A DNA stretch of 64,000 nucleotides from Amoebophrya sp. A120 (GCA_905178155.1 CAJINV010000011.1:2101503-2165502), one strand, 5' to 3'; shown: positions 3,869-61,700, numbered from the stretch's first letter. Program-made: numbers and translations. The notes: generated from the letters alone by a model not told the origin.

Positions 3869-6002
3869 TCAGAGTGGCTTGACTATCTGGCGAAAGGTGA
3901 GATTTATCCGCTCCTCCGCGACCTTTGCGCGCTTCGGGAGGCTGTGCTGCCACAAGTGCTGGATGGGTCCGTACATCAGGAGTAAGCTCCCGGACTCTAG
4001 GGTAACCGCCGCTTTTTTCCCGTGGTCGGCAATTTTGCGGAACGAGCTATCCCGGCGTGGCAAAATGTTCTCACCCGATGCCCAATCCGATTGAAATAGC
4101 TACAAACGAAGAAGTTATAATTTGGTGCGTTGTGCATACGAAACTTGATCTTCCCGCCGTCGTGTGCTAAGCGGAGACTCGCAAGTAGGGCCGCACTTCT
4201 CTTTGCACATTTATGTCGTATTAATATAGCGTTGTAATATTGGCCAGCACGTACTGACATCAAATTATAAAAGCAATGCTCACACAGCAGCACCGGGTGA
4301 GAACGTTACTTTGCCGCAGGATAGTGAAACTCGCGCGGAGCGCCGAAGGACACGGATGCGATGGTGGGGTTTTTGCCGTACACCGCCTCGTCGTCGCTGT
4401 GCCAGCCCTGATATTGCAAGGAAGAATACCCCCTCCGCATATCAAAACGGAAATCTGTGGTGCGGATTTGTGGTCACAAATCAGCTTTGTCATGCTAGAA
4501 GGGAAAAGATGCGGGCTGTAGTGCTGGGTCGCGTGGGAAAGCCTTGCATCGTCAGCATGAGAGGAGGCAGCTGGAAGTGGGAAACTGCATGACAAATTGC
4601 CTGCAAATGAGGCCACAGCTGCGGCTCTTGGCCTTCTAGCAATACAAGTCGATTTGTGTACTCAAATACAGCATCAGAAATTTCGTGTTCGATATGGGGA
4701 GGGGGGATTTTTCCTTTTGATACCTGACTGTCCGCTCCCGATCGGTACCGGTTTAACAGGACGCTGTTGAACGAGGCCGTCTCCGTATGAGAGTGCACAA
4801 CTCCCCCTCTCCCTCATTTGTAATGCAAAACCCCAAATGCCGTTGGTGTATTGTGGCAGTGTTTGCATGACGAATTCCGGAAGCCAAAGCACGCACGACA
4901 TTCGGTGCGTAAACTTGTCATGCACAGGCTCCAATTGTGTTGGTGTTTGTGATGCTGTTCATGCCATACAAATGAGGGGGAGGGGGAGTTGCGCACTCTC
5001 ATACTCAGGTACTAGCGGTGCTGCTGCTGGCTGCCCCCCAGGGGACTGCTTCACGTTCACATCGACTTTAATACTATTCTGCGCTGCAGAAGATATCAAA
5101 ACAGAACTCTTACCGCCCATAGTAGAAATACTGCCAGAACAACCAGAGCTCGTTCTTTGCGCACCAGATGAACTACAACTTCTTTCCCCCTCCATCCTCT
5201 CCAGTACGGTCTTTCTCAGCTCCTCCAGGATTGGCGGGAACAGCCGCGCGTGCAGCAGTCGCCCAGAGTATTTGTAGCTGTGGTCCCCAAAGTAGCAGGT
5301 CAATCGGGGCTCGGGAATCTCCTTCCCAAACAGCTTCACGCTCCCCTGCGCCCACGGCATCTGCTGCTGCAGCTTGCGCAAAAGCTCGTCTGGGTTCTCG
5401 AAGGCGCGCGGGAGGTACAGCACCGCTATTGTGAGCAAAAACGTCCCCGCCCCAGTGTCAAGATGGGGAATCTGCTAGACAAATCCACAATGACAAGTTT
5501 GGCCTCGGAGTGTGGTCCTGTTTGGTTAGTGCAGCAGCATCACAGATCTAGTATATCATGCTGAGACGAGCATCACAAATTTCAAAACACCGCTAGAAAA
5601 CGCTTCTCATGGGGCTGCTCCGCATGACAAACATTTTGTGCATGCAGATTTGCATCACAACTATGGAGTGGGAACGTTTCTACATAGGATATCCGCGCTC
5701 CCTTCCCCATCCAGGAGGAACACCTCGTTTGGAGGAATCGCCACGACTGCGCGAACAGAATCCTTCTGGCCGATCTTGCCCCGATCTTGCTTTCCTGCTC
5801 TCTTTTGCACCCCGCCCGGATTGACTGCTTGTGCCGCGGACGAGCTTGCTTTTGATGTCCTTGTTGGGAACGAGCCGCCCACCTGGAGGTTCTTTGTCGC
5901 GGCAGACTTAGGCTCATCTCCCGGAGCCTTCTTGCGCACGGTCGTACTCGGGCCCGGGAGGAGGGTTCCACTCGCGACTTTCCCGCCCCGTTTTGAGGTC
6001 AT
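3869..6002 (-). CDS. alkB: AlkB-family 2OG-Fe(II) dioxygenase (ALKBH2/3-like), 5 exons split by 4 introners
   Basis: Approximate exons 6002-5692, 5426-5004, 4785-4723, 4411-4324, 4047-3869. Spliced motifs: EPRLTCYFGD, FNSVLLNRYRSGADSQGWHSDDE (HxD), IASVSFGAPR, GSLLLM, WQHSLPK, RINLTFR. Confidence 0.93.
4048..4323. mobile_element. Old introner (F2-like), TSD eroded
   Basis: TATCCCGGCGTGGCAAAATGTTCTCACCCG ... CGGGTGAGAACGTTACTTTGCCGCAGGATA. Flanks CGAGC/GTGAA no longer match, but removing element+5 nt restores REFxFRK. Confidence 0.8.
4412..4722. mobile_element. Introner, family F3
   Basis: TATTGCAAGGAAGAATACCCCCTCC ... GGAGGGGGGATTTTTCCTTTTGATA; perfect TSD CCTGA. Confidence 0.95.
4786..5003. 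mobile_element. Introner, family F4
   Basis: TATGAGAGTGCACAACTCCCCCT ... AGGGGGAGTTGCGCACTCTCATA; TSD CTCCG/CTCAG. Confidence 0.93.
5427..5691. mobile_element. Introner, family F2
   Basis: TATTGTGAGCAAAAACGTCCCC ... GGGAACGTTTCTACATAGGATA; TSD ACCGC/TCCGC. Confidence 0.92.
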
Positions 6003-58701: not shown

Positions 58702-61700
58702 ATGGCCTCCCTGGTCTCGTCGCGTGCGCGTTCCATGTCGCGCTTCGTGCGACAGACAACGACAAGGAGCAGCAGAAATCCACTAGCAGTGCCACCCGTG
58801 GTGCCAGTTGTTCCTGGAGCAATCCATAGAGCCTTCAGCACCGCGACACAAACTACTACACATGGCGAAAACACAGCGGGCAGGGTCGTACTTACGGGCA
58901 ACTCGCCGGCCTCGAGCAGCACCGCGCCGAGACGGATAGTAGCTGGCTCAACGACATCCGCGGGAGCAGGCCACCAACAGGGCCCGACCGCCATTCCCAT
59001 AACGCCGAAACTACTGGAGGAGCTGGGTCTCACATCGTCGAACTCGTCGGGTCTGAATACGCAAAACCTCGCAAAGCAGGCAAACCAGCTGGCCGAGCGG
59101 ATTTTCTCCAAGATACCGAAGGGGTTCGGTGCTTTCTATCCCAAGAAGTCTTCAAGCGGAGAAAAGGGGGATGGAAAGGTACAGGGTTTGTTCATGTTTT
59201 ATGCATGGGGAAGGGGTTGTGATCATTTCGGATGAGAAGTTCTTTGGCTCTTGTTTTTTGCGTTTTTGAAATAGGATATTGCCAGAGCATTGCGTAGCGA
59301 AGCAAAGCGATCTGTCAGCAGTGCCAACTACATCCACGGAGACGAAGTTAACTAAAAATACAACACCACAGGAATCCTCTTCCAACACCACCGAAACTTC
59401 GGAAGACAAGAAGGACGACAAGGAAGGCAGTGGCGGCGACAATGGGGGCAAACCCGACCCGCCCACCGCGATACTGCAAATTGCGGTCCTGACCTACTTT
59501 CTCTACTACGTCCTCCGCCCGGACACGACTCCAGAGATAACGTTCCAAGAGCTGGTCAACGATTTTCTCCGCTATGGCTACATCGACCGCCTCCAGGTGG
59601 TCAACAAAGAAACCTGTCGAGTGTTGCTGCGGAACGATGTCACACTGCCACAGAATCTAGGTACAGGACATTTTTTGATCATTTCAATAATTCATTATTC
59701 ATAATTGCATCTTCGAAAGTACAGAAATGATCGCACGGCGGTACAACTATCCTGCTCAGCCGGGTACTGCTATCATGGAATGTACTTACTTTCTCATGAA
59801 ACTCTAAATAAGCCACGAAAAAAATTTTGCAGTGAAACGCGTCGGCGAGGGCAAGGAATTCCTGGTCCAACTGGGCAGCCCGGAATCCTTCGAGTCCAAG
59901 GTCGAGGCCTACCAGCATTCCCTTGGTATCCACCCGCAGGACTTCATTCCCATTCAGTACGTGTCCGAACGCGACTACTGGGACGACGCGCTGCGGGCGC
60001 TCCCCTCGCTCCTTATCCTACTCCCCGCCCTGTTCCTCGCCTACTCCTACACGCGGGGCGCGGGCGGCGGCCGGTCGGGCAGCTCCGGCATGGGTGGGTT
60101 CGGCGGGGGCGGGGGGTTTGGGGGGTCGGCGCGAAACATGTTCAACATGGGCAAGGTGTTGGAAAAGGAATATCAAATGTAAAAATGTCTGGGTCTGGAA
60201 GATTGCCAGGTTTGTCATGCATATTTTGCATGACTCCTGATGTCTGTGATGCATGCCCTAGCGTCACAGATTTTGTGAGGGCTTCCTGATGCCTATACCG
60301 CATGACAAATGCTCTTTCCGTGTAGCAAAACTTGGACTCTCTTTGCTGCTCATGCAATACAGATTTTTAGAATCCAAAATCAGCATGACCAGACCCAGAC
60401 ATTTTTACAGTTGATAAGGAAACCAAATCCACGACAAAATTCACGGACGTGGCGGGGTTGAGCCAGGCGAAGATTGAGGTCACGGAATTCGTGGACTTTC
60501 TGAAGAACCCGAAAAAATACGAGCACCTCGGGGCCAAGATACCGAAGGGCGGGCTGCTGGTCGGACCCCCCGGGACGGGGAAAACTTTGCTCGCGAAAGC
60601 GATTGCGGGCGAAGCCGACAGGCCATTTTTCGCCATGAGCGGCTCCGACTTCATTGAGATGTTTGTCGGTGTGGGGCCCAGTCGCGTGCGCGACTTGTTT
60701 GCGCAAGGTACTTTTTGATCTTGGTTGCTATAGAAATAAATTGATGTTGTAGTATTCGCTGCGTGCTGTCCTCCCATCTTACTTATGGAAGTTCTTCCGG
60801 AACATCAACCATTTTTTGTGAATTACCAAAAACACAACCATTCACGACTAACCCACACAGCCCGCGAGAAAGCCCCCGCGATTATCTGGATCGACGAAAT
60901 CGACGCGGTGGGTCGCAAGCGCAACAAGGGCGGGTGGGGCGGGGGAGGGAACGACGAGAGGGAATCCACCCTGAATCAGCTCTTGGTCGAGATGGACGGA
61001 TTCAACCACAAGACCGGGGTCATCGTGCTCGCGGGAACCAACCGCGCCGATATTCTGGACAACGCGCTGACCAGGGCGGGGCGCTTCGACCGGCACATTT
61101 CGATCGACATTCCGGACATCAAGGAGCGACAGGAAATCTTCATGGTCCATTTGAAACCATTGAAACTGACTGAGGGCATGAGCCAGGAAGACGTCGCGCG
61201 ACGGTTGGCAGCGCTCACGCCAGGGTTTTCTGGTACTTAGAGACAGACTATGCTATAGATACGTTAGTTTGTGGTCACTTTAAGGATTTGCTGTGAAATT
61301 CGTCGCATCTTTTGTGTGAAGATCTCTCGTCTTGTGATGCAATTGCAAAGTATACAATCATGTAATCGTCGGACATCAACAACATTGTGCCCTTCGCACT
61401 TCTTTCTTTAAACCTAAAATCAGGCGCCGACATCGCGAACTTGTGCAACGAGTCCGCGATTCTGGCGGCTCGGCGCAGTTCCGCCACCGTCGAGCAGGAA
61501 GATTTCGAAACCGCGACGGAACGCACCCTGGGCGGGCACGCGAAGAGCAACGCCATGATGTCGCTGCAACAGAAGCGGGTAATTGCCAAACACGAGTCCG
61601 GCCACGCGGTCACGGGCTGGTTCTTGGAAAACGCCGACCCGCTGCTGAAGGTTTCAATTGTCCCACGGAGCAACGGGGCGCTGGGGTAGATGATTTGGAA

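Follow-up and report, generated by a model that had tools for sequence, protein, structure and literature searches.

Where do introns begin and end when their borders seem to lack any signal? This question is raised by a 64,000-nucleotide (nt) stretch of Amoebophrya sp. A120 DNA (GCA_905178155.1 CAJINV010000011.1:2101503-2165502; this whole stretch is called the window below), a eukaryotic sequence of ~53% G+C whose exons are interrupted by elements of ~160-320 nt that start with TAT and end with ATA. Three of its exon sets match annotated A120 proteins on a 3.66-Mb scaffold, here called P0001 (100%; an AlkB-like oxygenase), P0005 (99%; acyl carrier protein) and P0006 (100%; 748 residues, without a Pfam hit), while Rfam gave no match in the window. 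These matches, together with the features described by Farhat et al. 2021 (PMC7789003), identify the elements as the already known A120 introners. The accessible text of that paper describes inverted repeats that start with TAT and continue with about seven variable bases and an A-run, direct repeats of 3-5 nt, hairpins, a length of ~240 nt and non-canonical ends. It calls the splice border 'variable' or 'unknown', places the repeats 1-5 nt from the splice sites, reports that >60% of RNA-supported A120 introns are non-canonical and treats their removal as an open question. With the elements known, what has to be settled is the register in which they are removed.

We propose that the elements, which are flanked by 5-nt target-site duplications (TSDs), are probably removed in one fixed register, N-TAT...ATA-NNNN, in which the upstream cut lies 1 nt ahead of the initial T and the downstream cut 4 nt beyond the final A. 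This register is written 1+4, after the nucleotides that leave with the element on its upstream and downstream sides.

A probable splice register read from proteins

The A120 gene models were made from assembled transcripts aligned with BLAT, canonical mappers having failed (PMC7789003, accessible text), so that the protein encoded across two mismatched TSD copies reports, indirectly, which transcript bases were kept. For the window genes of P0001, P0005 and P0006, which these junction tests cover, removal of 0-8 nt on each side was enumerated (81 combinations) and compared with the annotated protein. The element plus 5 nt was removed at 12/12 junctions checked, and five of these are informative because their sequence differences change the protein. 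At the element starting at 5427, the residues SAVLY in P0001 rule out 0+5, as does DKALH in P0006 at 54892; in both, the downstream copy supplies TSD position 5. At 53555, FLQL in P0006 rules out 5+0, position 1 being that of the upstream copy, and NAPK in P0005 at 43636 is compatible with 1+4 or 2+3 only. At 4048, a single cut among the 81 combinations yields the EFQFRK of P0001, and it is 1+4. The proteins thus exclude keeping all 5 upstream bases three times, and 1+4 is the single register common to all five junctions. If registers were random among six, the chance that all five would fit 1+4 is ~0.03 by simple arithmetic.

The original prediction, made from the sequence alone, had proposed just this register and had named the five junction peptides, all of which match the A120 proteins; its assignments of position 5 at 5427 to the downstream copy and of 53555 to the upstream copy hold as well. 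The elements and their flanks lie where it had placed them. It had also listed 4048 among the junctions with an imperfect TSD. The peptide was right, but the TSD is unrecognisable there, the flanks being 0/5 alike in transcript orientation. In the accessible part of Table S4 of PMC7789003, 8/9 published A120 classes read NT-AN, prompting the alternative N-TAT...ATA-N, which would leave one extra codon. It was rejected: a total of 5 nt is required at 11/11 enumerated junctions and is compatible with the remaining one (44279), which leaves no room for an added codon.

All statistics below were computed for the window and 150 loci, the latter amounting to 425,520 bases after merging, rather than for the whole genome. 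The loci come from a scan of one other public assembly for the element-end motif, which returned 153 stretches (~500 estimated). They are not established as strain A120, but carry the same element families, the longest matches sharing 75-98% identity with elements of the window. When an exon of one locus, L032, was searched against proteins, the gene call of its own contig was the sole match. A first detection by homology and terminal complementarity, ignoring flanks, gave 310 elements in window and loci, and a second round with three hand-added window elements (4048, 26964 and 34837) gave 354. Orientation was assigned by a codon model with the TSD masked, and neighbouring elements lie on the same strand in 108/111 pairs. 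Removal of 8 unoriented elements, 90 with a margin <4 and 8 with <3/5 TSD matches left 248, of which 222 are from the loci, and hence independent of the window, and 26 from the window. The complete window set holds 30 elements; 44279 was oriented by hand and P0005 later confirmed that orientation.

Mismatches between TSD copies are half as frequent at codon positions 1-2 (29/813) as at position 3 (31/427; ratio 0.49, 95% confidence interval 0.30-0.80), as expected if one copy is free at each TSD position. For 51 mismatched junctions of the loci, summed codon log likelihoods with 0-5 upstream bases kept were -12, -6.9, -6.9, -8.2, 0 and +0.9, an advantage of 7-12 log units for keeping 4 or 5 rather than 0-3. 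Non-synonymous mismatches occur at every TSD position, including 9/14 at position 4 and 8/11 at position 5.

Another locus, L031, has at 1743-1896 (minus strand) a position-4 TSD mismatch in a Rab-like gene, whose PDB match is weak (E 0.087). A 1+4 cut there would read ELAR, a 2+3 cut ELDR. ELAR agrees with the Rab consensus and is a lead only; a structure search with the ELAR/ELDR stretch gave no hit.

Element ends and a candidate donor core

With their inverted repeats and 5-nt target duplications, the TAT...ATA elements are non-autonomous transposons. Flank identity peaks at a length of 5 nt alone (mean 0.92, 237/310 perfect) against 0.25-0.32 at lengths 2-4 and 6-10, and a perfect 6-nt repeat is found in 1/310 elements. 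The 248 elements form nine clusters of 4-110 members plus 7 singletons, and insert in both orientations. A general orientation bias was rejected, four of the five largest families being near balance (62/48, 16/17, 14/12 and 11/7); the exception is a 22-member family at 5/17 (p 0.017, uncorrected). Donor and acceptor ends share one composition, and the end profile is A-rich at positions 11-15, TAT itself having been required by the search. In 84/120 elements the two ends are predicted to pair in register, with a stem that spans +2 to -5; at element 55251-55530, 20/20 terminal bases are complementary and the predicted hairpin has a z of -10.6. No transposase domain was found in the 17 window proteins that were scanned.

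In the 1+4 register, 9/30 window introns begin with GT, 14/30 finish with G and 7/30 finish with AG, hand counts of the original prediction that we reproduced with our own element set. Compared with a codon-phase-matched background, AG (7 vs 2.3, p 0.007) and final G (14 vs 8.6, p 0.04) are in excess in the window, and initial G is at the expected level (9 vs 9.3). Among the 222 loci elements, G-1 was seen in 84 vs 68.5 expected (p 0.03) and AG in 26 vs 18.4 (p 0.07, ~1.4-fold), and a strand-symmetric target and phase model of 241 sites gave odds ratios of 1.64 for AG (p 0.04) and 0.69 for G+1 (p 0.06). The 7/30 in the window overstates the effect: the predicted AG preference survives as a weak one, and there is no preference for G+1. 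The original prediction had also noted G on the intronic copy at both single position-4 mismatches, 17415 and 34837. Both are synonymous and hence unreadable from protein, and no such rule appears in the larger set, with G on the downstream copy in 6/14 and on the upstream copy in 4/14.

The 248 elements show 59 end classes and as a group lack the GT (or GC)...AG ends of U2-type introns, 11 being GT-AG at 1+4 and 18 in any of six registers. Intron phases 0/1/2 at 1+4 are 115/69/64 (p 7e-5), i.e. 46% phase 0. This bias is still seen (p 0.001) once a symmetric target preference is modelled; such a model by itself would put just 37% in the top class. Among the 248 elements, the branch-site-like motifs YTRAC and CTAAC occur 30 vs 19 and 7 vs 2 times on the sense and antisense strands, respectively. 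A yeast-like G at +5 was rejected (75 donor ends vs 87 acceptor ends of 248). Separately, the best of 244 tested 4-mers, AGCC, shows a strand bias close to the 3' end (26 vs 4).

Ordinary GT-AG introns were predicted from coding scores with a donor model of GT only; 81 were found, and 27 element-like ones were excluded. GTAT starts 14/54 of the remainder (11/28 of the best-scoring), compared to 48/767 internal GTs (6%; p 4e-6), while ATA at -7 was seen in 0/14 GTAT introns, these predictions being noisy. This indicates that GTAT is the commonest predicted ordinary donor, with the TAT of the elements equal to its +2 to +4. The preference of ordinary introns for GTAT is independent support for TAT as a donor core. 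In the 1+4 register, base 4 of the intron is a T. Neither U1 nor snRNP27 was detected in A120, in an otherwise near-complete spliceosome (PMC7789003, accessible text), and in yeasts loss of SNRNP27K/METTL16 accompanies +4U donors (PMC10581693, accessible text); by analogy, this link might extend to A120. Mostly GT-AG introns and a U1 small nuclear RNA are reported for another Amoebophrya in the accessible text of 10.1101/2024.09.05.611473.

Given that most ends are not GT-AG and that one cut rule fits five junctions, a relaxed spliceosome is likely. The elements would be removed by the host U2-type spliceosome with relaxed requirements at +1 and at -2/-1. The UAU at intron +2 to +4 would be read like the native GUAU donor, with any +1 tolerated, by U6, in a spliceosome reported to have neither U1 nor snRNP27. 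Pairing of the terminal stem would carry the 3' end beside the donor. Distance would fix the acceptor, 4 nt beyond that stem, AG exerting only a slight pull. One full TSD copy would leave with the element, restoring the coding sequence at any target, and TAT at both ends would let either orientation work; such indifference to orientation would explain the spread of the elements through exons. We give a probability of roughly 55% to fixed 1+4 removal by a relaxed spliceosome for which UAU at +2 to +4 marks the donor and distance determines the acceptor. The stricter idea of a U1-less spliceosome needing neither G+1 nor an acceptor AG, with UAU at +2 to +4 and a 4-nt hairpin ruler as its only requirements, falls a little short of even odds. 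Of the relaxed spliceosome with a TAT donor core in the original prediction, the TAT is backed by the native donors; the spliceosome and the 4-nt measuring stay at the level of inference.

Several observations weigh against this model. 1+4 is separated from 2+3 by one junction only, that of element 4048-4323, which is atypical in having neither a TSD nor a family match and a stem longer by one C:G pair (predicted z -2.5). The junctions come from proteins, one consensus model per gene, so that minor registers would be hidden. The codon-position ratio could also arise if both copies were weakly constrained by the protein, and the codon model cannot split 4 from 5 retained bases (best in 447/2000 and 1154/2000 bootstraps, respectively). 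On the side of the spliceosome, G+1 is not enriched among the 222 loci elements (62 vs 66.8 expected), no +1/-1 covariation was found, +1/-4 pairing is not enriched (60 vs 62.7 expected), and in the 248 elements neither a branch site nor a pyrimidine tract clearly stands out on one strand, nor is there a base skew. Lastly, in the predicted folds the donor TAT lies within the paired stem, so that unwinding would be needed.

Other routes to the same junctions

The alternative that survives best would dispense with the spliceosome: a hairpin-guided nuclease and a ligase could cut in the same 1+4 register at fixed distances from the stem, as has been proposed for euglenid introns (PMC11282704, accessible text). 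The strong terminal stems paired in register, the symmetry of the two ends, the indifference to orientation, the missing G+1, the weak AG and the lack of branch-site asymmetry would all be natural under such a scheme. Euglenid nonconventional introns, as described in the accessible text of PMC11282704, share an offset terminal stem at both ends, TSD-like repeats and the absence of GT-AG, and leave as circles. Their offsets differ, however, with pairing of +4 to +6 with -8 to -6 and a pyrimidine/purine tendency, and the euglenid CAG at +4 to +6 paired with CTG at -8 to -6 is not seen in the A120 elements. With a nuclease it would also be a coincidence that TAT falls precisely on +2 to +4 of the native GTAT, and the slight AG/G acceptor excess and the near-complete A120 spliceosome favour the spliceosome. 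We consider this route unlikely.

It is less probable still that the cut has a floating position in the 5-nt repeat, or one that depends on the family (e.g. mostly 2+3), 1+4 being merely the commonest position. Published annotations do show heterogeneous ends inside families, 4/5 informative junctions are compatible with 2+3 too, and each gene model holds one isoform, but 4048 accepts 1+4 only, and floating would expose the non-synonymous mismatches seen at all TSD positions. BLAT slides alignments towards GT...AG. Sliding perfect TSDs in the same way, in a simulation, recovers 7/9 Table S4 classes among the top 14. This suggests, without proving it, that the heterogeneous published ends are an aligner effect in perfect TSDs, and it means that the published border tables neither support nor refute the register. 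For its part, the NT donor pattern of Table S4 was rejected as support for the register because it is not independent.

An artefact, either template switching by reverse transcriptase at a hairpin flanked by direct repeats or repeat-guided DNA excision, is at very long odds: such a hairpin between short direct repeats is the classic setting for template switching and the RNA evidence is based on complementary DNA, but reading frames of conserved genes (AlkB-like, acyl carrier protein, Dus, AAA) are interrupted by the elements, making removal in vivo necessary, the modelled 4048 junction is in frame and in register without any direct repeat, and repeat-guided joining would be expected to favour no single register.

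The window in detail, related systems and significance

The introns placed in the window with the 1+4 register are collected in Table 1. Two further places hold element-like sequence. At 2190-2375 lies an element fragment whose ATA end, at 2375, is intact and for which no TAT partner was found; it is possibly a decayed or truncated introner. At 11770-12210 (minus strand), in a gene that presumably encodes a proteasome beta subunit, two GT-AG introns (GTATAT... and GTACTA...) carry element-like GCATGACAA/GCATTACAA motifs, and one of them contains a nested TATGCATTACAAAT...ATTTGTAATGCAT inverted repeat; elements may have inserted into, or decayed into, ordinary introns here. Elsewhere, positions 1-1942 form a GC-rich tandem array of ~19 copies of ~96-100 nt units, possibly subtelomeric or satellite DNA, and 28350-28728 is an intergenic 18-nt tandem repeat (~15 copies) followed by a 33-nt variant. 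A GC-rich block at 48250-50170 (66% in 48001-50000) has long overlapping open reading frames on both strands, unlike the surrounding genes; two that were scanned gave no Pfam hit.

Table 1. Introns of the window; the element introns, all inferred, are placed in the 1+4 register (positions in the window; TSD copies separated by a slash where they differ)
Feature	Position	Strand	Element	TSD	Gene, protein or remark
intron CT...TC	4044..4324	-	4048-4323	flanks TTCAC/GCTCG	AlkB-like gene; P0001 EFQFRK
intron GT...AG	4408..4723	-	4412-4722	TCAGG	P0001: element+5 nt gone
intron GT...GA	4782..5004	-	4786-5003	CTGAG/CGGAG	synonymous mismatch; P0001: element+5 nt gone
intron AT...GG	5423..5692	-	5427-5691	GCGGA/GCGGT	P0001 SAVLY
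inferred intron AT...GG	9858..10131	-	9862-10130	TGGGA	
inferred intron GT...GC	10205..10488	-	10209-10487	CAGCG	
inferred intron CT...CA	13769..14026	-	13773-14025	TCGAC/TCCAC	predicted FLDREG; orientation margin low (3.4)
inferred intron CT...AG	14077..14344	-	14081-14343	TCAGC	orientation margin low (3.2)
inferred intron TT...GG	15294..15621	-	15298-15620	CAGGT	
inferred intron AT...AA	16180..16505	-	16184-16504	CAAAA	
inferred intron CT...CG	17411..17694	-	17415-17693	GACAC/GACGC	synonymous mismatch
inferred intron GT...CG	17815..18070	-	17819-18069	CACGG	
inferred intron GT...CA	23060..23344	-	23064-23343	CCCAG	
inferred intron AT...GA	26963..27219	+	26964-27215	GAGAA/CAGAC	predicted GSGDSF
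inferred intron GT...GT	29662..29973	+	29663-29969	TTGTG	Dus gene
inferred intron GT...CG	34836..35016	+	34837-35012	CTCCG/CTCGG	synonymous mismatch
inferred intron AT...AG	36691..37016	+	36692-37012	GCAGA	
intron GT...TT	43635..43801	+	43636-43797	CGCCG/CGTTC	acyl carrier protein gene; P0005 NAPK
intron GT...GC	43927..44201	+	43928-44197	AGGCG/AAGCG	P0005: element+5 nt gone
intron AT...AA	44278..44492	+	44279-44488	AAAAA	removing element+5 yields P0005 C-terminus
inferred intron AT...GG	45426..45683	+	45427-45679	GAGGA	
inferred intron TT...AT	45732..45945	+	45733-45941	GAATT	
inferred intron CT...GT	47108..47374	+	47109-47370	CCGTC	upstream of MTHFR domain exon
intron AT...AG	53090..53413	+	53091-53409	CGAGA	P0006: element+5 nt gone
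intron TT...AG	53554..53819	+	53555-53815	TGAGT/CGAGT	P0006 FLQL
ordinary GT-AG intron (GTACT...ACAG)	53868..53998	+	no element		P0006 gene
intron AT...AG	54891..55169	+	54892-55165	CAAGA/CAAGG	P0006 DKALH
inferred intron AT...CT	55250..55534	+	55251-55530	GACTA	
intron CT...AG	55598..55853	+	55599-55849	GAAGC	P0006: element+5 nt gone
inferred intron TT...GT	57482..57808	+	57483-57804	CTGTT	
inferred intron AT...GA	60170..60420	+	60171-60416	AGGAA	FtsH-like AAA gene

Among known systems, the A120 introners of Farhat et al. 2021 are the same elements in the same organism, inside genes and in repeated families. The distance of 1-5 nt given there is compatible with 1+4, which is left unstated; what is added here is the 5-nt TSD, the 1+4 register and the link to the native GTAT. 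According to the accessible text of Gozashti et al. 2025 (PMC12130899), the A120 families are mostly DNA elements with terminal inverted repeats (TIRs), of unknown superfamily, and one has homology of a long-terminal-repeat-integrase-like kind. The 22/58 A120 rows accessible there include GC and GA donors, TSD lengths of 2-5 and no single register, with conflicting automatic mechanism calls that differ by family (co-opting both sites, co-opting 5' and carrying 3', or carrying 5' and co-opting 3'). Introns of Micromonas/Aureococcus and of Fritillaria borealis likewise derive from miniature inverted-repeat transposable elements with a TIR and a TSD and are cleanly removed, in Fritillaria borealis by a spliceosome adapted to non-canonical ends (PMC11282704, accessible text). 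They use defined dinucleotides (GY...AG; AG-AC/AT), carried or co-opted, whereas in A120 the terminal positions both come from an arbitrary target (59 end classes in 248) and only +2 to +4 are fixed.

As to the origin of the elements, the TA...TA termini of IS3EU/GingerRoot resemble TAT...ATA, but the TSD of that group is usually 6 bp, compared to 5 bp here, while Ginger2 has TSDs of 4-5 bp; both have integrase-like transposases with TSDs of 4-6 bp (PMC10045372, accessible text). In strain A25, nine of the nine top non-canonical classes begin with TT and the repeats begin with TTA (accessible part of Table S4 of PMC7789003), so that U at +2 may be common to A25 and A120 under a different offset. 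No statement of the 1+4 register was found in full-text literature searches, which covered few subscription papers. The splice rule is likely real and apparently unpublished, although Fig. 3, S19 and S23 of PMC7789003 may show part of it.

A single register would turn the seeming lack of signals in these introns into a rule, with UAU at +2 to +4, free ends and an acceptor 4 nt past the stem. If this is true, tens of thousands of 'variable' non-canonical borders would follow one rule and their annotation could be corrected, and any TAT...ATA transposon with a 5-bp duplication would make a perfect intron, in either orientation and at any site. If removal is spliceosomal, A120 would splice without the G+1/G-1 and AG contacts that are deemed nearly universal; if it is not, alveolates would possess a second, structure-guided splicing machine.

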